A DNA stretch of 64,000 nucleotides from Christensenellaceae bacterium (GTDB taxonomy: Bacteria > Bacillota > Clostridia > Christensenellales > Borkfalkiaceae): assembly GCA_045654365.1 (NCBI GenBank), contig JAZONF010000009.1, positions 45,345 to 109,344 of the forward strand, given 5' to 3'. The translations under genes and the position numbers were made by a program. Positions 4,608 to 52,683 of the stretch are shown in pieces (the stretch's first letter is position 1; the number at the start of each line of letters is the position of its first letter). Below the pieces are notes generated by a model, which worked only from the letters and a program-made list of their open reading frames with translations, did not search any database and was not told the DNA's origin.

Positions 4608-5412
4608 AATTATTGATATTGACGCGCTTTTTGATAAATATATTTCCGATTACGTTTATAAAAATATAGGCAAAGTTAAGCCGGAGGAAATTGAAAATCA
4701 AATCCCAATATTATACGAGAAATTTGGCAAAGAAAAATTAGAAGAATTGGATGGTAAAACCCCAGAAACTTATTATTCTCTTGGCAGTGCTTCGGAACTT
4801 TTAGACGTGCTAAAAAAACACGTCGTATCGGGTGTTTCAGTGCCGGATTTTTTAGTGGAAGCAATCGCTAAAAAAACTAATGATGAAAAGGATTTTTATC
4901 TCGCGTTAAACGACGACGAAAGCGACGAATACATTTGCTATTTAATGAATATTTTATCCGATATGGATATAATTCCAACAAAAAAATATATGGAATTTTT
5001 AACGCTTGATTATCCTTATAACGTAAAGGAACTTGCGACGGAACTTTTATCTAAGAGAGCCGACGAGGTTAAAGAGGATATAATTGCAATATTTTCCGAG
5101 AGTGACGAGGAGAGTAAGGAACTTTTTTCTGAAATTTTATCCTATTCTAAAAAGGACGATAAAACTTTTGATATATTGACGTTACAGTTTGTTAAAAGGC
5201 GGGATAAAACGCCCTTATACGCAGGGTATCTTGCAAGGTTTGGTGACGAGAGGGCTTTACCCTTTTTAATGCAAGCGATAGAAGAGGAAAAAATTTCATA
5301 TTCCGACTTTGAAGAACTGCGTTTTGCTATCGAGGCTCTTGGCGGAACGTACGATAAGATAAGAGATTTTTCTTCCGATAGGTCGTTTAAGAAAATAAAA
5401 GACAATAAATAG
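4600..5412 (+). CDS. hypothetical protein with HEAT-like repeat at the C-terminus
   Basis: AGGAGAG RBS. Overlaps the upstream gene by 8 nt. ERALPFLMQAIEEE resembles HEAT/PBS-lyase repeats. Confidence 0.4.
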   Translation: MIKIIDIDALFDKYISDYVYKNIGKVKPEEIENQIPILYEKFGKEKLEELDGKTPETYYSLGSASELLDVLKKHVVSGVSVPDFLVEAIAKKTNDEKDFYLALNDDESDEYICYLMNILSDMDIIPTKKYMEFLTLDYPYNVKELATELLSKRADEVKEDIIAIFSESDEESKELFSEILSYSKKDDKTFDILTLQFVKRRDKTPLYAGYLARFGDERALPFLMQAIEEEKISYSDFEELRFAIEALGGTYDKIRDFSSDRSFKKIKDNK

Positions 5413-5529
5413 ACAAAATTAGGTTGCAATCACTAAAAATGAAGTTAAGTTTTTTGGTAAAAAAGCAACCTTTTTTATTGAATAAAAAATGCTACAAACG
5501 GAATAATAAAAGTAAGGAGGATTAATTTT

Positions 5530-5655
5530 ATGTCCAAAAAGAAAAAGAATAAAGTTAGAAAATTAACCGAAGAACAATACAACGAATATCTAATGGCGCT
5601 AAAGGATGAAGTCCCACCAGAAATCATTAGGGAAACGGAAGGTCAAGGAATTTAG
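5530..5655 (+). CDS. 41-aa small protein (MSKKKKNKVRKLTEEQYNEYLMALKDEVPPEIIRETEGQGI)
   Basis: Below the ORF-track cutoff. Strong AAGGAGG (5514-5520) lies 9 nt before the ATG, and a dedicated terminator follows immediately downstream. Confidence 0.55.
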   Translation: MSKKKKNKVRKLTEEQYNEYLMALKDEVPPEIIRETEGQGI

Positions 5656-5672
5656 GTATATTTTAAATAAAA

Positions 5673-5712
5673 GGAAACGGAAATTTGTTAGAAAAAAATT
5701 TCCGTTTTTTAT
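5673..5712 (+). terminator. rho-independent terminator
   Basis: AAACGGAAATTT (5675-5686) pairs with AAATTTCCGTTT (5696-5707), followed by a T run. Confidence 0.75.
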
Positions 5713-5741
5713 TGCAATTCTATTTGTTTTTATAGTATAAT
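5712..5741 (+). promoter_or_regulatory. sigma-A-type promoter (TTGCAA-18-TATAAT)
   Basis: TTGCAA 5712-5717 and TATAAT 5736-5741. The ORF-track ATG at 5740 sits inside the -10 box, so I moved the CDS start to 5773. Confidence 0.45.
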
Positions 5742-5772
5742 GTTAAAAGAAAAAGTTTTATCTGAGGAAAAA

Positions 5773-6912
5773 ATGATAGAGATTAAAAAAGTTACAACAA
5801 AGAGTGACATAAGAAAGTTTACCAAATTCCCTATAGATTTATATAAAGATTGTCCCTATTACGTACCGTCCATGGTGGCCGACGAGTTAGTTATCTTTGA
5901 CGAAAAAAAGAATTTAAGTTTAGAAGGAAACGAGATAGTAGGCTTTTTGGCATATAAAGACGGTGAGGTTGTAGGAAGGATTGCCGCTATAATCAACGAT
6001 AACGAAAACAGTAAGGGCGACACGAAATACATAAGATTTTCAAGATTTGAAGCGATTGACGATTTAGAAGTTTTTTCCGCTCTGCTTGGTGCGGTGGAAA
6101 ATCTTGGCAAGGAAAGAGGTTTTGACGTAATTCACGGACCTTGGGGATTTACCGACCAAGATAGAGAAGGCTTACTTACATATGGTTTTGATAAACGTAG
6201 CACCTATGCAACTAATTATTATTACGAATATTTCCATAAAAATCTTGAGGCGTTAGGTTTTGAAGATGAGTCAAAGTGGGTGGAATTTAAATTCAATATT
6301 CCTAAAGAACCATACGAGCGTATAATGAAGTTTGCCGAGAGGGTGAAAAACAAATATAGTTTTAGGGATTTGGCTGACGAAATATCGGTTAAAGATATTA
6401 TAAAAAAATACGGCATAAAACTTTTTGATACTGTGGACGAGTCTTACGGGCATTTGGACGGATACGTTCCTTTGACGGAAAAAATGCGTAATAACGTTCT
6501 TTCTCAATTTGGAACGATAGTTAATTCAAGATATATAAGCGTTCTTGTAGACGAAAACGACGAAGTTGCTGCTTTTGGTGTTTGTTTGCCTTCAATTTGT
6601 GATGCGCTTATTAAGAGTAGGGGAAAGTTGTTCCCTACGGGATTTATCGGAGTATTAAAGTCAATAAATAAGCCTAAAGAACTTGAGATGGCGCTTATCG
6701 GTGTAAAGAAAAAGTATAAAAATTTAGGTCTTAACGCAATAGTTATTGCAAGAATTATGTCAAATCTTATCAACGACGGTGTTGAGGCGATAGAGTCTAA
6801 TCCAATGCTGGAAACTAATTTTGATATTCAAAGACAATGGAAATTTGCCGAGTCAGAGATTGTTAAAAAACGCCAAACTTATAAAAAGGAAATAGGCTCT
6901 TTAATTAAATAA
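5773..6912 (+). CDS. GNAT-like acyltransferase family protein (putative)
   Basis: ATG at 5773 is preceded by GAGGA. The sequence has two acyl-CoA N-acyltransferase-like halves (EVVGRIAAIIND..., ALIGVKKKYKNLGLNAIV). Family recognition is from memory only. Confidence 0.45.
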   Translation: MIEIKKVTTKSDIRKFTKFPIDLYKDCPYYVPSMVADELVIFDEKKNLSLEGNEIVGFLAYKDGEVVGRIAAIINDNENSKGDTKYIRFSRFEAIDDLEVFSALLGAVENLGKERGFDVIHGPWGFTDQDREGLLTYGFDKRSTYATNYYYEYFHKNLEALGFEDESKWVEFKFNIPKEPYERIMKFAERVKNKYSFRDLADEISVKDIIKKYGIKLFDTVDESYGHLDGYVPLTEKMRNNVLSQFGTIVNSRYISVLVDENDEVAAFGVCLPSICDALIKSRGKLFPTGFIGVLKSINKPKELEMALIGVKKKYKNLGLNAIVIARIMSNLINDGVEAIESNPMLETNFDIQRQWKFAESEIVKKRQTYKKEIGSLIK

Positions 6913-12362: not shown

Positions 12363-12662
12363 ATGGAAAAAAATTTAGAATATACTGAACTTTTTGAGGT
12401 TTATAAAGGGCTTTTAACTGATAAACAAAGGGAATTATTTTCTTCTTATTACCTTTTAGACTTGTCCCTTGCCGAGATTGCCGAGCAAGAGGGGAGTTCA
12501 AGACAAAGTGTTTACGACCAAATAAAAAAAGTTAAAACAAAATTGCTTGAGTATGAAAAAGTTCTTTCCTTAAAGGAAAGAAACGAGGAAATTAAGGCAG
12601 TTATAAGCGGGATTTCTGATATAGAAATCTATAATAAAATTTTAGAAATTATAGGTAGATAA
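12363..12662 (+). CDS. ylxM: YlxM/UPF0122 putative DNA-binding protein (sigma-70 region-4-like HTH)
   Basis: Conserved position immediately before ffh. LLTDKQRELFSSYYLLDLSLAEIAEQEGSSRQSVYDQIKK is typical of the family. Confidence 0.8.
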   Translation: MEKNLEYTELFEVYKGLLTDKQRELFSSYYLLDLSLAEIAEQEGSSRQSVYDQIKKVKTKLLEYEKVLSLKERNEEIKAVISGISDIEIYNKILEIIGR

Positions 12663-13972
12663 TGGCGTTATTTTCAGGTCTTTCGGAAAAACTTAATCAC
12701 ATATTTTCCAAACTGACCAAGCACGGTAGACTTACCGAGCTTGAAATAAAGACTGCTATGAGAGAAGTGCGAATTGCACTTTTAGAGGCGGACGTTAATA
12801 TTTCAGTTGTTAAGGAATTTGTGTCAAAAGTATCCGAAAGGGCTGTTGGGCAAGAAATATTAAAAAGTTTAAGTCCTACGCAACAAGTTATCAAGATTGT
12901 TAATGAAGAACTTATTGCGTTAATGGGGTCGGCAAACGCTAAACTTAACTTTTCCTCAAGTCCGTCGGTTATAATGATGGCGGGGCTTCAAGGTGCAGGT
13001 AAAACGACGTTAGTTGGAAAACTTGGTATGCTCCTTAAAAAGCAGGGAAGAAAACCGCTATTAATTGCATGTGACGTTTATCGTCCCGCAGCGATTAACC
13101 AACTAAAAGTAGTTGGAGAAAAGGCAGGGTGTCAAGTTTTTGAAAAGGGACAAGGCAATCCCGTTAAAATAGCGAAAGAGGGTGTTGCTTACGCTAAATC
13201 GTACGGTTTTGATACCGTTATTATCGATACTGCAGGTAGACTTCAGATTGACGAAGAGTTGATGAAGGAACTTGAGAAAATCAAAGCGGAGGTTAATCCT
13301 AGCGAGATTTTATTAGTCGTTGACAGTATGACCGGTCAAGTTGCGGTAGAGGTTGCGGATACATTTAATAAACGCTTAGAAGTCACCGGTTTAGTGTTAA
13401 CTAAACTTGACGGTGATACGAGGGGCGGTGCAACTCTTTCAATGAAAGCGGTTACGGGTAAGCCTATTAAATATTGTTCGGTAGGGGAAAAACTTGGCGA
13501 TTTAGAGCCTTTTTATCCCGATAGAATGGCTAACCGTATTCTTGGAATGGGGGACGTTTTAACCCTTATAGAAAAGGCGCAAGAGGCAATAACTGAAGAG
13601 GACGCTAAAAAAATGGAGCGTAAGTTTAGGGAAAACTCTTTTACGCTTGACGACTTTTTAGTTCAGTTTGAAACAATGAACAAGATGGGCGGTATAGGTT
13701 CTATTCTTTCAATGTTACCCGGTATGGGCGCAAAAATAAAGATTAGGGAAGAAGATATCGACGAGAAAAAGATGATAACCATGAAAGCGGTTATTCAATC
13801 TATGACTAAAAAGGAAAGGCTTAATCCTCAAATAATAAATTCTTCAAGAAAGATAAGAATTGCTAAGGGTAGCGGAACGAGTGTGCAAGAGGTTAATAGA
13901 GTTCTTAAACAGTTTGAGCAAAGCAAAATGATGATGAAACAAATGAAAAACAATAAATTGTTTAGATTTTAA
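12662..13972 (+). CDS. ffh: signal recognition particle protein Ffh
   Basis: GLQGAGKTTLVGKL, DTAGRL, TKLDGDTRGG, and a Met-rich M domain (MNKMGGIGSILSMLPGMG). Confidence 0.95.
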   Translation: MALFSGLSEKLNHIFSKLTKHGRLTELEIKTAMREVRIALLEADVNISVVKEFVSKVSERAVGQEILKSLSPTQQVIKIVNEELIALMGSANAKLNFSSSPSVIMMAGLQGAGKTTLVGKLGMLLKKQGRKPLLIACDVYRPAAINQLKVVGEKAGCQVFEKGQGNPVKIAKEGVAYAKSYGFDTVIIDTAGRLQIDEELMKELEKIKAEVNPSEILLVVDSMTGQVAVEVADTFNKRLEVTGLVLTKLDGDTRGGATLSMKAVTGKPIKYCSVGEKLGDLEPFYPDRMANRILGMGDVLTLIEKAQEAITEEDAKKMERKFRENSFTLDDFLVQFETMNKMGGIGSILSMLPGMGAKIKIREEDIDEKKMITMKAVIQSMTKKERLNPQIINSSRKIRIAKGSGTSVQEVNRVLKQFEQSKMMMKQMKNNKLFRF

Positions 13973-14000
13973 TATTTACAAATAAAGGAGAACAAAAAAA

Positions 14001-14294
14001 ATGGCAGTAAAAATGAGATTAACCAGAATGGGCGATAAGAAATCTCCCTTCTACCGTATCGTAATCATGGACAGCAGAGTAGCAAGAGACGGCGCATATA
14101 TTGACAAAGTTGGTCACTATAACCCCACCGCTCAACCTGCAGAAATCGTTATCGACGCAGAAAAGGCTAAAGATTGGCTTTCTAAGGGTGTTCAACCTAC
14201 CGACACGGTTAAAAACATCTTAGTTAACCAAGGTGTTTTACCTAAGCCCACTAAACTTTCACCTGCAAAAACCAAAGTCCGTAAATCTAAATAA
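14001..14294 (+). CDS. rpsP: 30S ribosomal protein S16
   Basis: MAVKMRLTRMGDKKSPFYRIVIMDSRVARDG... is canonical bS16. Confidence 0.95.
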   Translation: MAVKMRLTRMGDKKSPFYRIVIMDSRVARDGAYIDKVGHYNPTAQPAEIVIDAEKAKDWLSKGVQPTDTVKNILVNQGVLPKPTKLSPAKTKVRKSK

Positions 14295-46798: not shown

Positions 46799-46854
46799 AC
46801 TTACTTGACAAAGTAGTTTTATAATAGTATAATAAGGATATAAGGAGATTAACT

Positions 46855-47055
46855 ATGGTTGCTTTATATATTATTTTATCGATAATAGGGGTAGCGTTTT
46901 TCGTGTGTTCGGGGATAGTTTGCGGTAGAATTTGCGCTACTATTATTAGAGATAAAAACCCAGATATGAACGAAGTTTTATGGTTTTGGTACGGATTTTT
47001 ATGTCAATGGATAGCAGTTTTATCAACTTCCGTTATAAAACCTAAAAATAAATAA
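46855..47055 (+). CDS. 66-aa two-TM membrane protein, unknown function
   Basis: AAGGAG RBS (46843-46848). Two hydrophobic helices separated by IIRDKNPDMNE. Confidence 0.5.
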   Translation: MVALYIILSIIGVAFFVCSGIVCGRICATIIRDKNPDMNEVLWFWYGFLCQWIAVLSTSVIKPKNK

Positions 47056-47064
47056 ATTATTTAT

Positions 47065-47093
47065 TTGACAATTTGTTTTTTTAATGATAAAAT
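47065..47093 (+). promoter_or_regulatory. sigma-A promoter (TTGACA-17-TAAAAT) driving the T-box leader
   Basis: TTGACA 47065-47070, 17-nt spacer, TAAAAT 47088-47093. Confidence 0.6.
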
Positions 47094-47099
47094 AAATCA

Positions 47100-47359
47100 A
47101 AGCGTTGATGAAGAGGCGTTTCTGCCGTAACCTTTTTAGAGAGTCGGTGTTTGGTGCAAATCGATAAGGGGTGCAGGCTCGTGTAACTTCGGAGCAGAAA
47201 GGAAGAAAGCCTAGAGTTGGTGATTAGAACCTTTCCGTGTATGCTACGATAGTGCAGAGGAATTGATAGATTCCGTAGAGTGGCGGTTTTTCGCAATTTG
47301 AGTGGTACCGCGGGCAGATTTTACCCGTCTCAAAGTAAATGCTTTGGGGCGGTTTTTTT
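47100..47359 (+). promoter_or_regulatory. T-box riboswitch leader (tRNA-sensing transcription attenuator), apparent specifier GUA (Val)
   Basis: Stem I base GAAG 47110-13 / CTTC 47187-90. AG bay AGAGAG 47138-43. Distal hairpin 47144-64 with a GGTGCAA loop. GTA-A at 47183-86 sits just 5' of the closing helix. Stem II 47197-202 / 47230-35. Stem III 47259-63 / 47270-74. T-box sequence AATTTGAGTGGTACCGCG 47295-312. Antiterminator with 7-nt bulge TGGTACC. A competing terminator is present. Confidence 0.88.
47324..47359 (+). terminator. T-box expression-platform terminator
   Basis: CCGTCTCAAAG (47325-35) pairs with CTTTGGGGCGG (47342-52), 11 bp including 2 G-U pairs, followed by T7. Its 5' arm is shared with the antiterminator 3' arms. 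Confidence 0.85.
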
Positions 47360-47376
47360 ATACCATAGGAGTTATT

Positions 47377-49662
47377 ATGGAGTTACTTGATTTAAAAATT
47401 AAGGAAATGGCGGAGCGTATAAGGGAGCTTCGTGAGATTGAGGGAAAAACTCAAGAGGAAATGGCTAAAAAGACGGACGTTTCTTTGGAAGAATACGTTT
47501 TGTGTGAAGAGGGTAAAAGTGACCTTAATTTTGCCTTTATTTACCGTTGCGCAAACGCACTTGGGGTAAACGTTACCGATATAATCGAGGGTTTTTCACC
47601 TAAACTTACTTCTTACACCGTTACGAGAAAGGGTAAAGGTCAAGAGATAGCAAACGCCCACGGTATGACTTATTATAACCTTGCTTATGCTTTCCAAAAT
47701 CGTATTGCTGAGCCTTTATACGTTAAAACCGTTTACGACCCTGAGGCGGAGAGAAAACCTATCGAGTGCACTACCCACGCTGGGCAGGAAATAGACATAG
47801 TAGTTTCCGGCAAACTTATGGTTCAAGTAGGAAAACATAGAGAAACACTTAACGCTGGTGATAGTATTTATTACGATAGTAGCACGCCACACGGCATGAT
47901 TGCAGTTGGTGGTGAAGATTGTGTGTTTTACGCAATAGTATTAAACCCATCTGGTGAGCCTATCCCAGACCTTGAGGGTGAAAGTGCAGTTGCTGGTAAA
48001 TCTATTAAAGCCGTTGCTAAGGATAGAGGGGATAGAATATATAAAAAGTACGTTGACGTTAAAGAGGACGAAAACGGTTATCCCTTAAAAATTAAATTTA
48101 AAAATACCGATAAGTTCAACTTTGCTTTCGACCTTGTTGACGCTATTGCTGAGCGTGAGCCTGATAAACTTGCAATGTTGCATGTTTCCAAAGACAAAAC
48201 GGAAAGAAGATTTACCTTTTCCGATATAAAAAAGGAATCAAATAGGTGCGCAAACTACTTTAAGTCGATAGGTGTTAAAAAGGGTGATAAAGTTCTATTA
48301 GTATTAAAAAGGCATTATCAATTTTGGCCTATTATGATGGGTTTAAACAAAATCGGCGCAATAGCAATATTAGCGTCTAACCAACTTCAGGAACACGATT
48401 TTGAGTATAGGTTTAAGTCCGCCGGTGTATCTACCGTAATTTGTACTGCCGACGGAGAGACTTATCGTCAAGCGGAACTCGCTATGGCTAAATACGGAAA
48501 GATGAAGCGCAAAATTTCCGTTAACGGCGAAATTTCAGGTTGGAGAAATTTTGACGAAGAGTATAAAATGTATAGTACTCATTTTGAAAGGACGGAAGAT
48601 ACCGCTTGCGGTAACGACCCACTTTTAATGTTTTTTACTTCTGGAACTTCTGGCTACCCCAAGATGGCAATGCATAACCATAAATATCCTTTAGGGCATT
48701 TCCACACAGCAAAATATTGGCACTCGGTTGATACTAACGGTTTGCATTTTACCATTTCTGATACCGGTTGGGCAAAGTCAATGTGGGGAAAACTCTATGG
48801 ACAATGGCTTGCGGAAGGCGCAATTTTCGTTTACGATTTCGATAGGTTTGATGCAGGGGATATTCTTCCTATGTTTGCTAAACATAAGATTACTTCTTTC
48901 TGTGCTCCACCTACTATGCTTAGAATGATGATTAAGCAAGATTTATCTAAATACGATTTATCCTCCGTTAAGCATATGACTACTGCTGGAGAAGCGTTAA
49001 ATCCCGAAGTTTATCGTCAGTTTGAAAAATTAACGGGACTTCAAATACACGAGGGTTTTGGTCAATCGGAAAGTACTATGATTTTAGGAAATATGATTGG
49101 CGCACCTCACAAGATTGGCTCTATGGGTAAACCTGCACCTATTTACGACGTTTCTATCGTAGATGCAGATTGTAAACCCGTTCCCGTAGGCGAGGTTGGT
49201 GAAATCGTTGTTAACGTATCTAAAGGTGCACCTTGCGGTTTGTTTACGGGTTATTATAACGACGAGGAAAAGACTAAAGAAGTTTGGCACGACGGATTTT
49301 ATCATACAGGCGATACCGCTTGGATGGACGAGGACGGATATTATTGGTACGTTGGTAGGGTGGACGACGTTATTAAATCGTCAGGCTACCGCATAGGACC
49401 TTTTGAAATTGAAAGCGTTATTATGGAACTTCCGTACGTTTTAGAGTGTGGCGTTTCGGCTGCGCCCGACGAAGTTCGTGGACAAGTTGTTAAAGCAAGT
49501 ATCGTTTTAGTTAAAGGTACTGAGCCTACTGAAGAACTTAAAAAGGATATTCAAAAATACGTTAAAGAAAGGACTGCTCCTTATAAGTATCCAAGAATCG
49601 TTGTGTTTAGAGATGAATTGCCTAAAACCACGAGTGGTAAAATTCAAAGAAACAAATTATAA
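47377..49662 (+). CDS. fusion protein: XRE-family HTH + cupin domain + medium-chain acyl-CoA-synthetase-type adenylate-forming enzyme
   Basis: ATG 47377 follows AGGAG. HTH (KTQEEMAKKTDVSLEEYVLCEEGK), cupin (HAGQEIDIVVSGKLMVQVG...GDSIYYDSSTPHGM), ANL motifs FFTSGTSGYPK, YHTGDTAW, GRVDDVIKSSGYRIGPFEIES, PKTTSGKIQRNKL. The ORF-track 5' extension from 47302 covers the T-box terminator and is rejected. Confidence 0.85.
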   Translation: MELLDLKIKEMAERIRELREIEGKTQEEMAKKTDVSLEEYVLCEEGKSDLNFAFIYRCANALGVNVTDIIEGFSPKLTSYTVTRKGKGQEIANAHGMTYYNLAYAFQNRIAEPLYVKTVYDPEAERKPIECTTHAGQEIDIVVSGKLMVQVGKHRETLNAGDSIYYDSSTPHGMIAVGGEDCVFYAIVLNPSGEPIPDLEGESAVAGKSIKAVAKDRGDRIYKKYVDVKEDENGYPLKIKFKNTDKFNFAFDLVDAIAEREPDKLAMLHVSKDKTERRFTFSDIKKESNRCANYFKSIGVKKGDKVLLVLKRHYQFWPIMMGLNKIGAIAILASNQLQEHDFEYRFKSAGVSTVICTADGETYRQAELAMAKYGKMKRKISVNGEISGWRNFDEEYKMYSTHFERTEDTACGNDPLLMFFTSGTSGYPKMAMHNHKYPLGHFHTAKYWHSVDTNGLHFTISDTGWAKSMWGKLYGQWLAEGAIFVYDFDRFDAGDILPMFAKHKITSFCAPPTMLRMMIKQDLSKYDLSSVKHMTTAGEALNPEVYRQFEKLTGLQIHEGFGQSESTMILGNMIGAPHKIGSMGKPAPIYDVSIVDADCKPVPVGEVGEIVVNVSKGAPCGLFTGYYNDEEKTKEVWHDGFYHTGDTAWMDEDGYYWYVGRVDDVIKSSGYRIGPFEIESVIMELPYVLECGVSAAPDEVRGQVVKASIVLVKGTEPTEELKKDIQKYVKERTAPYKYPRIVVFRDELPKTTSGKIQRNKL

Positions 49663-49672
49663 TTTAATTAAT

Positions 49673-49711
49673 AAAAAACCTCTTGAAACGTTTGGTTTCG
49701 AGAGGTTTTTA
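49673..49711. terminator. bidirectional rho-independent terminator between convergent genes
   Basis: AACCTCTTGAAAC (49677-89) pairs with GTTTCGAGAGGTT (49695-707). Flanked by an A run and a T run. Confidence 0.8.
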
Positions 49712-49733: not shown

Positions 49734-50366
49734 TTATTCGTCTTGAGGAAAACTATTTTCTTTCTCAATCTCGGCGGGTGGTACGTCTGTTGATTTCTTA
49801 AATCGAATTTCTGCAACTATAATGGAACTCATAACGAATATTTCGTTTATAACGCCAGAGAAGGAGAAATATACGGAGTTATATATTAGCCAAAGCGCAG
49901 AAGAGGGGAAATTTAAGCATCTCAATTTATGCGGGTCTTTAAGTCCGTATCCTATGGTGGTAAGCGATTTTGCGATAATAGAAAAGATGCTCATTGTTAC
50001 CGCAAGGATAATCATTAGAGTGTAATTATTAGTCCTTTTAGCCATTTTGCTTACTAAACCTTTCCAAGTAAAAACTATCGTAACTATACCAGCAATTATG
50101 GTAAAAATGGTAAAACCTATAATCCAAGGTTTATTATCCTTTCCCTTTTTAACATTTTCGGCAAAAATGAAGTTTCTTATTATCCCGATAAAGTCCAAAA
50201 CCATACCGGTATATGCACCTAAGAAGAAATATTGCAAAACGAACATAAACGTTCCTAAAGTTTTGCAAAGCATTATCTTATAGTGCTTATTAAATTGTAC
50301 GGATATAGTCATAAAAAGTATACCAATAAAGCCTAAACCTTGCACGAAGATATCCCACCAAAACAT
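49734..50366 (-). CDS. YgjV-family inner-membrane protein
   Basis: 210 aa with about 6 TM helices. N-terminus GLGFIGILFMTISVQFNKH resembles the YgjV family. AAGGAG RBS. Confidence 0.55.
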   Translation of the reverse strand: MFWWDIFVQGLGFIGILFMTISVQFNKHYKIMLCKTLGTFMFVLQYFFLGAYTGMVLDFIGIIRNFIFAENVKKGKDNKPWIIGFTIFTIIAGIVTIVFTWKGLVSKMAKRTNNYTLMIILAVTMSIFSIIAKSLTTIGYGLKDPHKLRCLNFPSSALWLIYNSVYFSFSGVINEIFVMSSIIVAEIRFKKSTDVPPAEIEKENSFPQDE

Positions 50367-50614: not shown

Positions 50615-51151
50615 ATGAAAATAGGTGAAAAGATAAAAAATTTACGACTGTTTTGTGAACTTACGCAAGAGGAACTTGCCGATAGGTGCGAACTAACTAA
50701 AGGATATATTTCTCAACTTGAAAACGATTTAACCAGTCCGTCTATTGCAACTCTTATAGATATTCTTTCGGCGCTACGAACGGACTTGAAGGAGTTTTTT
50801 TCCGACGTTGGTACGGAGGATAAGATTAGTTTTAATAAAAACGAGTTTATTGAAAAACAAGCAGACGGGTACGTTATAAATTGGCTTGCGCCAAACGGTC
50901 AAAAAAACACAATGGAGCCTATACATCTAAAACTTGATGCGGGAGCAAGTACGGACGAAGATATTCCGCACGAGGGGGAAGAGTTTGGCTACGTTATTAA
51001 GGGCGAAATAGCCGTGGTGCTTGGAAAAAGAAAGGTTAAAGTAAAAAAGGGCGAAAGTTTTTATTTTACTTCCAAATCAGTACATAAAATAATCAACGTT
51101 TCTAAGTCGGAAGCGGAAGTGGTATGGGTATCGTCCCCACCATCTTTTTAA
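50615..51151 (+). CDS. XRE-family HTH + cupin transcriptional regulator (PuuR-like)
   Basis: IKNLRLFCELTQEELADRCELTKGYISQLEN HTH. C-terminal cupin (HEGEEFGYVIKGEIAVVLG...GESFYF). ATG 50615 follows GAGGTGGA. Confidence 0.8.
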   Translation: MKIGEKIKNLRLFCELTQEELADRCELTKGYISQLENDLTSPSIATLIDILSALRTDLKEFFSDVGTEDKISFNKNEFIEKQADGYVINWLAPNGQKNTMEPIHLKLDAGASTDEDIPHEGEEFGYVIKGEIAVVLGKRKVKVKKGESFYFTSKSVHKIINVSKSEAEVVWVSSPPSF

Positions 51152-51168
51152 TGAAAGGAGAGGAAATT

Positions 51169-52683
51169 ATGGCAGATTATACTAATGAAAAAATAATAGA
51201 ATTGGTTGGTATTAACCGTACTTTTGACGACGGTGTGGTAGCCGTTGACAACTTTAATTTTTACGTACGTAGGGGGGAATTCGTAACCTTTTTAGGGCCT
51301 TCTGGTTGTGGTAAAACTACAACTCTTCGTATGATAGCAGGTTTTGATAAACCAACGGAGGGTAAAATTTTGCTTAACGGAAAGGATATAACAAACCTTC
51401 CGCCCAACCAACGTCCGGTAAATACCGTTTTCCAAAGGTATGCACTCTTTCCGCACCTTAACGTTTATGAAAATATAGCGTTTGGATTAAAACTTAGAAA
51501 GTACAAGGTAACTTATCAAGATGAAAATGGGAAAACCTTTAGTAAGGTAGAGAAACTTTCTAAAAAAGAAATTGATAAAAAGGTGGAAAAAGTTCTTCAT
51601 ATGGTTGACCTTGAGGGGTTTGAAAAAAGAAGTGTTTCCACGCTTTCGGGCGGTCAACAACAAAGGGTTGCTATTGCAAGGGCACTTGTTAACGAGCCGG
51701 AAATTTTACTTCTTGATGAACCTTTGGGTGCACTTGACCTTAAGATGAGAAAGGATATGCAGTTAGAGTTAAAAGAGATGCATAAAAAACTTGGCATAAC
51801 TTTTATCTACGTAACGCACGATCAGGAAGAGGCTCTTACTATGAGTGATACTATTTTAGTTATGAAGGACGGAGTTATTCAACAAATCGGTACGCCTACC
51901 GATATTTATAACGAGCCTAAAAACACCTTCGTTGCAAACTTTATAGGTGAAAGCAATATTTTCTCCGGCACTATGGTAGGTAAGAAAAAGGTTAAGTTTA
52001 TAGGAGCATCCTTTGACTGTGTTGACGATTTCCCTAAAAATGAAAAGGTAGATATCGTAGTTCGTCCTGAGGACGTTGCTATCGTTTCAGCAGAAGAGGG
52101 GCAGGCCACTGGTAAAATCATTAGTTCTATATTTAAGGGCGTGCATTACGAGATGGTAATGAAGGTTGGCAAGAACGAGGTAGTTATTCAGTCTACCGTG
52201 GAGCGAAAGGTTGGAGAAACAGTTTCTATCCGCATTGAGCCCGACAATATTCATATCATGGAAAAAGAGTTTTCTTCTAATAAGTACGATGGATATATAA
52301 CTAAAAAGAATACGGTTGTATTTGGTGACGGAGAGTTTGAGTGTGACGTTACTCAACTTTATCCCGGTTCTATTTTAGACGAAGAGGGATATTTAATTAC
52401 CGGTGATGGAGAAAAAATAGACCTTACCGACGTTGACGTTAACGTTGAGGTTGGCTTAAAAGATATTGAAATTTCCGACGACGCAGAAGAAGGTGGCGCA
52501 ATCGGTAATATAGTTTCTATAATCTATAAAGGAGACCACTATCAAGTTATAGTTAGGACGGACGAAGAGGAAGAAGATTACGTTTTAGATACTGAATATA
52601 CTTGGAACGAAAACGATAGAGTTTCCGTTATTATTCCTAAAGAAAAAATTAAACTTTCCTTAAAGCAGGAGATTAAAAGATGA
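51169..52683 (+). CDS. potA: spermidine/putrescine-type ABC transporter ATPase, extended form with second C-terminal TOBE-like domain
   Basis: GPSGCGKTTTLRMIAG, LSGGQQQRVAIARAL, LLLDEPLGALD. A first TOBE-like segment ends near ...IRIEPDNIHIM, then an extra roughly 130 aa with a second IYKGDHYQVIV...VSVIIPKEKI segment. Confidence 0.85.
   Translation: MADYTNEKIIELVGINRTFDDGVVAVDNFNFYVRRGEFVTFLGPSGCGKTTTLRMIAGFDKPTEGKILLNGKDITNLPPNQRPVNTVFQRYALFPHLNVYENIAFGLKLRKYKVTYQDENGKTFSKVEKLSKKEIDKKVEKVLHMVDLEGFEKRSVSTLSGGQQQRVAIARALVNEPEILLLDEPLGALDLKMRKDMQLELKEMHKKLGITFIYVTHDQEEALTMSDTILVMKDGVIQQIGTPTDIYNEPKNTFVANFIGESNIFSGTMVGKKKVKFIGASFDCVDDFPKNEKVDIVVRPEDVAIVSAEEGQATGKIISSIFKGVHYEMVMKVGKNEVVIQSTVERKVGETVSIRIEPDNIHIMEKEFSSNKYDGYITKKNTVVFGDGEFECDVTQLYPGSILDEEGYLITGDGEKIDLTDVDVNVEVGLKDIEISDDAEEGGAIGNIVSIIYKGDHYQVIVRTDEEEEDYVLDTEYTWNENDRVSVIIPKEKIKLSLKQEIKR

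Follow-up and report, generated by a model that had tools for sequence, protein, structure and literature searches.

Isoacids (isobutyrate and 2-methylbutyrate) are a long-recognised requirement of many anaerobes of gut and rumen for making branched-chain amino acids. Two ligases of the ANL superfamily that act on such acids have been described: Macs of Methanosarcina acetivorans prefers 2-methylbutyrate and has Trp259 as a critical alternative pocket residue (PMC10455477), and MbcS of Staphylococcus aureus is selective for 2-methylbutyrate and isobutyrate, is poor on isovalerate and supplies branched acyl-coenzyme A (acyl-CoA) primers in that organism (PMC10026030). Here we analysed a relative of these enzymes encoded in a 64,000-nucleotide (nt) stretch of contig JAZONF010000009.1 of a Christensenellaceae bacterium. 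This whole stretch is called the window; positions are those of the window, and the gene studied, with its leader, lies on its plus strand. The gene (coding sequence 47377..49662) encodes a protein of 761 amino acids (aa) in which a helix-turn-helix (HTH)-like domain of the XRE type and a cupin barrel precede a complete ligase, and it is preceded by a T-box leader with a valine specifier. As judged from the comparisons given below, the protein is most likely a short branched-chain fatty-acid:CoA ligase acting on isobutyrate, and its N-terminal module, which shows no sign of reading DNA, may be a sensor of a small ligand.

Other described systems share single features with this locus. BirA, PutA and NadR each join an adenylate-forming or metabolic enzyme to an HTH-type domain in one chain, as the fusion does, and there the helix that reads DNA and the operator both work. 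Regulators composed of an XRE-type HTH and a cupin (the PuuR type, the Vibrio cholerae protein 1y9q, and the gene at 50615-51151 in the window) resemble the N-terminal module in domain order, in their length of about 180-195 aa and in a His...Glu...His site. The non-haem-iron phosphonate enzymes HppE, Psf4, HEPD and MPnS also combine an HTH-like domain with the His/Glu/His metal-site pattern of a cupin; unlike the fusion, they are not joined to a ligase. The branched-chain T-box regulons of Firmicutes have the same specifier, UGGN bulge and terminator logic, with Val, Ile or Leu specifiers placed on genes of the matching pathway, but their targets are aminoacyl-tRNA synthetases, ilv/leu genes or transporters, whereas the target here is an acyl-CoA ligase of fatty-acid salvage. 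T-boxes are a bacterial device, so none is involved for Macs, which also has no N-terminal HTH-cupin module; MbcS, a single-module monomer for lipid synthesis, likewise has none. A literature search on the HTH-cupin-ligase architecture, on T-box control of acyl-CoA ligases and on the HTH-like domain of HppE found nothing relevant, and no published characterisation of the family was found. The parts (a Macs/MbcS-type ANL ligase, a T-box and an HTH-cupin module) are known; their combination appears to be undescribed in the literature searched.

The open reading frame (ORF) runs uninterrupted from an ATG at 47377 to the stop codon at 49660-49662, and a ribosome-binding site, AGGAG (47367-47371), lies 6 nt before the ATG. 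A longer start at GTG 47302, which lies inside the T-box and at which orthologues do not start, was rejected. Domains were assigned with Pfam and judged by its gathering cut-offs, which all four domains of the fusion exceed. The HTH was matched by HTH_19 (aa 13-71, E 2.9e-9) and HTH_3 (aa 15-68, E 7.8e-7), the cupin by Cupin_2 (aa 132-187, E 2.3e-12), and the enzyme by AMP-binding (PF00501; aa 256-627, E 4.4e-62, 210.5 bits, cut-off 29.9) and AMP-binding_C (PF13193; aa 677-755, E 3.2e-21, 76.5 bits, cut-off 24.5). From Pfam together with an AlphaFold2 (AF2) model, the HTH-like five-helix domain was placed at 47413..47589 (aa 13-71), with the equivalent of the recognition helix, SLEEYVLCEEG, at aa 36-46, and the cupin beta-barrel at 47641..47946 (aa 89-190; modelled strands at aa 89-189). 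These are followed by an interdomain linker at 47953..48030 (aa 193-218), the N-terminal adenylation domain of the ligase at 48031..49356, defined by Pfam and motifs, and its C-terminal domain at 49357..49659. The linker is poorly conserved and predicted to be disordered, with a predicted local distance difference test score (pLDDT) below 50 over aa 193-214.

By its domains and its intact core motifs A3, A5, A7, A8 and A10, the 761-aa product is an acyl-CoA synthetase of the ANL superfamily. The motifs are TSGTSGYPK (aa 421-429, 48637-48663; A3, the P-loop), GFGQSE (aa 560-565), YHTGD (aa 642-646, 49300-49314; A7, YxxGD), GRVDDVIKSSGYRIGPFEIES (aa 660-680; A8 hinge, region 49354-49416) and PKTTSGKIQR (aa 749-758, 49621-49650; A10, with the catalytic Lys). 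The original prediction, made from the sequence of the window, had read the ORF as HTH, cupin and complete ANL enzyme and had pointed to a stand-alone regulator of like layout at 50615-51151; these readings are borne out, the regulator by Pfam matches to HTH_3 and Cupin_2. The linker, which had been put at about 40 aa, is closer to 25 aa, and an unfused ligase aligns from aa 219.

The cupin and the two AMP-binding domains are present in every one of the 120 best protein clusters (77-96% identity), and an HTH match in nearly all; their lengths range from 760 to 807 aa, nearly all being 760-765 aa. A scan of one genome per species gave 567 stretches encoding a relative, of which the best 80 loci were studied. 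These 80 loci all come from uncultured Clostridia of the gut or rumen with labels such as Christensenellaceae, Acutalibacteraceae and Oscillospiraceae, and each of them encodes the full-length fusion. Because the fusion is full length throughout the 120 clusters and the 80 loci, it is not the artefact of a frameshift or assembly error, a risk that the original prediction had raised; the proposed architecture is both confirmed by profile search and widespread in uncultured Clostridia. In the source databases the protein is named only 'AMP-binding protein' or 'cupin domain-containing protein'. Pairwise identity between fusion orthologues is 0.61 in the HTH, 0.69 in the cupin, 0.43 in the linker stretch aa 201-245 and 0.76-0.90 in the ligase, whose C-terminal domain (0.90) is the best-conserved part of the protein.

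The closest solved structure to aa 239-759 is that of Macs (3ETC, E 3.2e-179). In the alignment, the tryptophan that shapes the pocket of Macs for small branched acids, Trp259, is kept in the fusion within the motif AKYW (48709-48720). Among NCBIfam models, MbcS (NF047394) gave the top score for the fusion, 438.6 bits, which is far under the equivalog cut-off of 850 bits. The selectivity of MbcS for isobutyrate and 2-methylbutyrate agrees with the presence of Val and Ile T-boxes, and of no Leu T-box, on the ligases of the fusion family. These ligases fall into a Val-type and an Ile-type paralogue, and a comparison of 76 Val-type with 61 Ile-type proteins revealed four ligase residues that separate the two perfectly. 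Position 466, in the motif DTGW[A/G]K (DTGWAK, 48760-48777, in the window), is Ala in 76/76 Val-type and Gly in 61/61 Ile-type proteins; in the same sets, positions 469 and 568 are both Met in the Val-type and Leu in the Ile-type, and position 571 is Gly and Ala, respectively. Macs likewise has Gly at this position, in contrast to the Ala of the Val-type, and so do three unfused ligases, of which two lie behind Ile T-boxes. Position 466 is presumably equivalent to a residue in the wall of the acetate pocket in acetyl-CoA synthetase (Acs); on that assumption, the smaller Gly would be consistent with a larger C5 acid. The Val T-box, the gene clusters of relatives and the kinship with Macs and MbcS all argue for isobutyrate as the most likely substrate of the window protein, a point on which the original prediction had made no choice.

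The T-box leader (47096..47335) matches the full Rfam model RF00230 (model positions 1-219) with 87.2 bits and E 1.9e-19. The Rfam gathering score is 93, so the default scan was silent: at the gathering threshold no RNA family match was obtained in the window, and the T-box emerged in E-value mode. The T-box that had been noticed upstream of the gene is real nevertheless. A promoter, TTGACA-17-TAAAAT with a TG extension (47065..47093, 11/12 consensus matches), lies directly 5' of it, and an equivalent promoter (TTGACA-N17-TAxAAT) was pattern-matched before the T-box in 54 Val-type and 54 Ile-type leaders. The specifier codon is GUA for valine (47183-47185), followed by the purine A47186 and then by the CUUC helix strand. 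Related leaders read GUA/GUC or AUC, followed by a purine and CUUC, which fixes the register of the specifier. A UGU (Cys) specifier, implied by the raw cmscan alignment, was excluded by this comparison together with the UGGU bulge. The antiterminator bulge UGGU (47303..47306) pairs with a tRNA 3' end NCCA, that is, with discriminator A, and a discriminator A73 suits both tRNA-Val and tRNA-Ile. In 77/78 related leaders a T-box motif stands 5' of the orthologue, always with the UGGU bulge. The leader ends in a terminator (47325..47359) whose hairpin (47325-47352) has a stem of 12 pairs, 6 of them G-C, ahead of a TTTTTTT run. A further intrinsic terminator with a 16-pair stem and a T-rich tail (49674..49710) follows the stop codon, and the gene is monocistronic in the window.

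Leaders of the Ile-type and of split forms of the gene (described below) pass the gathering score with 97-110 bits, as seen in loci L081 (110 bits), L083 (97 bits) and L011 (98 bits). The Val-type ligase leaders checked in L002, L019 and L011 (about 5600-6000) gave no match at the gathering threshold. It follows that Val-type leaders lie just under the Rfam gathering score and that standard annotation will miss them.

To describe the gene neighbourhood, the ORFs around the 80 loci were clustered and representatives were annotated with Pfam. Downstream of the fusion, a CbiA/MinD-type P-loop protein is encoded in 63/80 loci, and a 2-oxoacid:ferredoxin oxidoreductase is represented by its alpha (POR_N and PFOR_II, 57/80), beta (TPP_enzyme_C, 50/80) and gamma (POR, 47/80) subunits. 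A class-IV aminotransferase of the IlvE type follows in 35/80 loci. A LeuA-like synthase occurs in 19/80 and has its own Leu (CUC) T-box in both loci checked, L011 and L041. In about 60/80 loci two full-length fusions stand in tandem, and each is preceded by a promoter and a T-box. The upstream copy encodes a 755-aa paralogue behind an Ile (AUC) T-box; the downstream copy, behind a Val (GUA/GUC) T-box, encodes a 762-aa paralogue and is the orthologue of the window gene. Examples among loci L006-L080 are L011 (3362-5629 and 5992-8280), L019 and L041. One cluster can thus hold three different amino-acid-specific T-boxes, for Ile, Val and Leu. The Val-type gene is solitary in the window and in the relatives nearest to it, L001-L004.

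These data suggest the following route. When valine is scarce, uncharged tRNA-Val would pair with the GUA specifier and the UGGU bulge and block the terminator hairpin, so that the gene is transcribed; stabilisation of the antiterminator by uncharged tRNA is established knowledge for T-boxes. The ligase would then convert isobutyrate into isobutyryl-CoA as the entry step of a salvage route, the oxidoreductase would reductively carboxylate isobutyryl-CoA to 2-oxoisovalerate, and IlvE would transaminate this to valine. Leucine could be reached from 2-oxoisovalerate through the LeuA that stands behind the Leu T-box. For this part, the activation of isobutyrate for valine synthesis, our confidence is good.

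The ligase could instead serve lipid synthesis as MbcS does, supplying branched acyl-CoA primers for branched-chain fatty acids of the membrane and not amino acids. MbcS, the best NCBIfam model, is known for exactly that role (PMC10026030), and neither oxidoreductase nor IlvE is encoded in the window. The equivalog cut-off of MbcS is missed by a wide distance, the Val-specific T-box ties expression to the charging of tRNA-Val, and relatives cluster the gene with the oxidoreductase, IlvE and a LeuA under a Leu T-box. We regard a lipid role as very unlikely.

Some observations concern the clusters themselves. The tandem order places the terminator of the Val T-box mid-cluster, upstream of the oxidoreductase and IlvE genes, although these are required by the Ile branch as well as the Val branch. 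The LeuA-like gene (HMGL-like and LeuA_dimer domains) lies at the cluster end; in L011 its T-box is at 12721-12952 (127 bits) and the gene at 13002-14279, and in L041 the corresponding region is at about 12500-13100. The conserved P-loop protein (221 aa; L067 8285-8950, with the equivalents counted above) is encoded between the Val-type ligase and the oxidoreductase and has a weak NUBPL/ParA-like match; it may be an iron-sulphur cluster maturation factor for the oxidoreductase. In L017 (491-2947) and L060 (579-3044) a third ORF of the fusion protein cluster, encoding 818-821 aa, lies 5' of the Ile-type paralogue and may be a third paralogue; no T-box motif was detected in the short sequence available upstream of it.

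The original prediction had proposed, by analogy with BirA and PutA, that occupancy of the enzyme by substrate or acyl-AMP is coupled to DNA binding. In such a trigger enzyme, ligase and repressor in one, the HTH would recognise an operator at the gene's own promoter or at another site, and DNA binding would be switched by acyl-AMP, the substrate or a cupin ligand. The HTH does beat the Pfam cut-offs with two models, its five-helix XRE fold is predicted with confidence, the closest PDB matches of the module by sequence are the XRE regulators 9k3w and 1y9q, and stand-alone homologues of the module exist, some without a neighbouring ligase. Both HTH and cupin are under purifying selection among fusion orthologues, the HTH as a whole included. 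FadD1 of Pseudomonas aeruginosa offers a precedent as a ligase that doubles as a DNA-binding regulator (PMC12754631).

The recognition helix itself gives a different result. As a control we used the window's own stand-alone HTH-cupin regulator (50615-51151), with 120 orthologues of 72-98% identity, a divergence range equal to that of the fusion. Exposed helix-3 positions 37, 38, 41, 42 and 45 of the fusion correspond to positions 29, 30, 33, 34 and 37 of the control. In the control, the recognition helix TKGYISQLEN shows zero variation in the 120 orthologues (0.00 bits of entropy at the exposed positions), whereas SLEEYVLCEEG of the fusion varies freely at the exposed positions, with 2.45 bits in the 76 Val-type and 2.55 bits in the 61 Ile-type proteins. 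These positions are the least conserved of the whole fusion, above even the linker (1.63 bits in the Val-type and 1.46 in the Ile-type), and hold Glu, Val, Leu, Ala, Ile or Thr. Entropy over the whole HTH is 0.80 bits (Val-type), 1.04 (Ile-type) and 0.25 (control); over the cupin it is 0.62, 0.54 and 0.85, respectively, and over the ligase, which like the linker has no counterpart in the control, 0.45 and 0.54. Helix 4, DLNFAFIYRCA, is almost invariant inside each paralogue. In the fusion, S-L-E-E-Y-V takes the place of S-R-Q-T-I-N in the PbsX-family regulator 9k3w.

The promoter regions of both paralogues showed no conserved motif beyond the -35 and -10 elements, and inverted repeats at the Val-type and Ile-type promoters were not enriched over shuffled sequences (z 0.47 and 1.38, two promoters only). 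Inverted repeats seen by eye around the -10 element in several promoters were dropped as operator candidates, because the shuffle test found no excess. The net charge of the HTH (-5.5 and -6.6 in the two fusion types) was not used as an argument against DNA binding, since the control regulator is acidic too (-4.9). In addition, the T-box already provides transcriptional control by the end product. The coupling of enzyme occupancy to DNA binding is thus unsupported, and we consider a BirA-like trigger enzyme quite unlikely. As to whether the HTH is still competent to bind DNA, which had been left undecided, the Pfam and fold signature is present and the evolutionary signature of DNA reading is not: the domain shows no sign of reading DNA, would not be a working repressor domain, and is more likely part of a small-molecule sensor or an interface. 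The case calls for caution in annotation, because an XRE HTH that passes Pfam lacks the DNA-reading signature while a genuine regulator of the same architecture, about 1 kb downstream, has a perfect one.

The fold of the module was modelled with AF2 for aa 1-235 from an alignment of 49 stand-alone homologues. The model (pLDDT 82.7) comprises a five-helix domain, with helices at aa 2-22, 26-32, 37-44, 52-62 and 66-71 (pLDDT about 90), and a cupin barrel; the tail, aa 200-235, is disordered. A Foldseek search against the PDB returned HppE first (E 1.1e-13), then the V. cholerae HTH_3 regulator 1y9q, then Psf4, HEPD and MPnS, at 12-23% identity and with template modelling scores (TM-scores) of 0.34-0.50 (query-normalised 0.34-0.43). 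From these matches, a combination of XRE-like helices and cupin has two known uses, in regulators and in enzymes of phosphonate metabolism. We know of no DNA-binding role for the helical domain of HppE-type enzymes. Inside the cupin, fused and unfused forms (40-50% identity) share His134, Glu138, Asp140 and His172 without exception; His-x3-Glu...His is the classical cupin metal site.

This raises the possibility of a second catalytic domain, in which a metal-dependent cupin of the HppE kind would have as its substrate the acid, its adenylate or CoA ester, or the 2-oxoacid, with the helical domain serving as structure; the protein would then be two enzymes in one chain. That all but one of the Foldseek matches named above are enzymes of HTH-like domain plus cupin, that the triad and Asp140 are invariant, that residues discriminating the paralogues gather near the triad, and that fusion or a gene gap of 3-4 nt is typical of enzymes of the same pathway would all fit. 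The similarity in fold is modest by its TM-scores and identity, however, the triad is just as conserved in the control regulator, and the route from acid to amino acid requires no extra chemical step. The O2- or peroxide-dependent chemistry of HppE-type enzymes is also implausible in hosts that are, from their taxonomy, most likely strict gut anaerobes. A catalytic cupin of this kind seems improbable to us, about as much so as a BirA-like repressor. A broader form also seems doubtful: with its HppE-like fold, the module would be a self-contained, metal-dependent unit for catalysis or ligand processing that works with the ligase, for instance by selecting, proofreading or modifying the branched acid or its adenylate. 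If true, the family would represent a novel sort of ANL enzyme equipped with a cupin partner of its own, either fused or split.

The module is also found as a separate protein of 190-195 aa with about 50% identity to the fused form. In 5 of the 7 stand-alone loci looked up, an unfused ligase gene lies directly downstream; carriers of such split pairs include Hydrogenoanaerobacterium saccharovorans, Ligaoa zhengdingensis and Zongyangia hominis. In three of the five pairs 3-4 nt separate the module gene from the ligase gene, while the remaining two gaps measure 26 and 124 nt; a T-box with an Ile (AUC) specifier stands ahead of four of the five. Aligned over aa 219-758 of the fusion, the unfused H. 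saccharovorans ligase shows 55% identity. The two remaining loci, without an adjacent ligase, are L089, where the module gene (5001-5573) is followed by a short-chain dehydrogenase, and L090, where it (5001-5576) is followed by an RsmE-like methyltransferase; here the module may have a ligase-independent role. A HAD hydrolase gene lies upstream at most split loci and is retained in L089.

Where the two paralogues differ bears most directly on the function of the module. Thirty-three positions discriminate the Val-type from the Ile-type, of which 22 fall in the first 200 aa, 3 in the linker, 8 in the N-terminal domain of the ligase and none in its C-terminal domain. As a share of conserved columns this amounts to 18-30% in the module against 3% in the ligase N-terminal domain, and the discriminating residues cluster near the cupin triad. 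Since the paralogues differ mainly in the module and not in the catalyst, the module should have a paralogue-specific task, such as recognition of a ligand of the Val or the Ile pathway. The same distribution bears on the view that the module is a mere appendage for structure or oligomerisation, the ligand-independent relic of a regulator gene fused to its target, which only aids dimerisation or stability of the ligase. A decayed recognition helix and a disordered linker are what such a relic would show, and HTH-cupin proteins are usually dimers or tetramers. It would not, on the other hand, explain why the residues in the cupin interior are invariant in fused and unfused forms, nor why the module is the part densest in conserved positions that tell the paralogues apart, which points to a paralogue-dependent function. 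We hold the relic view to be doubtful.

We favour a module that is a regulator-derived or HppE-like binder of a small molecule, with the helical domain serving as structure or interface. The cupin, with His134, Glu138 and His172, would bind a ligand specific for the paralogue, candidates being free valine, 2-oxoisovalerate and the acid itself, and the bound ligand would modulate the attached ligase. This would provide fast control, at the level of protein, of the ATP-consuming entry step on top of the T-box, in analogy with the feedback-regulatory domains of other branched-chain pathway enzymes. That the cupin might be an additional small-molecule site gating catalysis had been offered as the second choice in the original prediction, and the comparative data favour it; of the two stacked sensory layers proposed there, the form made of tRNA-Val charging at the T-box and a cupin ligand stands, and the form that includes DNA binding does not. 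The gating step by itself, to which the sequence comparisons point, remains tentative, its chance being somewhat short of even; for the whole picture, an isobutyrate-to-valine ligase under a Val T-box with a ligand-sensing module, we would put the chance at about even. In our view, the ligand-processing unit considered above is less likely than an allosteric cupin domain that tells Val-pathway from Ile-pathway ligands under the matching T-box, which would be the first dedicated domain of this kind on an ANL ligase.

Several points weigh against the picture of a valine-pathway ligase with a ligand-sensing module. The His/Glu/His site is equally invariant in the control regulator, so its conservation cannot separate sensor, regulator and enzyme. 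The full-length AF2 model is poor (pLDDT 68, predicted TM-score 0.59, from a shallow alignment of close homologues) and gives no evidence of docking between module and ligase. The two of seven stand-alone modules that have no adjacent ligase imply that the module can work unattached, and a free-standing regulator or enzyme fits them at least as well. In principle, the hypervariable helix might be co-evolving rapidly with operators that differ between species. In the 64-kb window, tblastn detected no homologue of the oxidoreductase, IlvE or the P-loop protein, so that the pathway is deduced from relatives (75-84% identity) and the T-box. The equivalence of position 466 with the pocket wall of Acs is an assumption.

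What is new in this family would be the combination of three features: the branched-acid ligase has a regulator-like module, either fused to it or coupled to it in translation; the paralogues come in pairs, one behind a Val and the other behind an Ile T-box; and the setting is a cluster for reductive carboxylation. The family offers a testable genetic module for isoacid-dependent amino-acid synthesis in gut anaerobes, consisting of Val-type and Ile-type acid-CoA ligases behind the matching T-boxes together with the oxidoreductase and IlvE. If the cupin is a paralogue-specific ligand sensor, it would represent a new way to regulate an adenylate-forming enzyme, with control layered as tRNA charging at the RNA level and a metabolite at the protein level.

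A distant homologue of the fusion, P0169 (758 aa), was found in the representative library. It keeps the HTH and cupin, with 41% identity in the module, and its ligase motifs are degenerate, LQSYSYGMAK standing for TSGTSGYPK and PKDANGVV for PKTTSGKI. By its sequence P0169 may have lost ligase activity and been kept as a sensor.

Three neighbours of the fusion gene in the window were also noted. The control regulator (50615-51151) is PuuR-like, with HTH_3 and Cupin_2, and overlaps by 28 nt the start of a gene for a potA-like ATP-binding cassette (ABC) ATPase (51124-52683); it is probably a regulator of polyamine uptake. A gene for a YgjV-family inner-membrane protein (49734-50366, minus strand) is convergent with the ligase gene right after the terminator of the latter, and a part of its product in the uptake of short-chain acids is conceivable. 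Between nadE and the T-box lies a 66-aa hydrophobic ORF (46855-47055) without a Pfam match, whose promoter (46805-46833) has 12/12 consensus matches; its coding sequence is also visible 5' of the T-box in L001 and L002.

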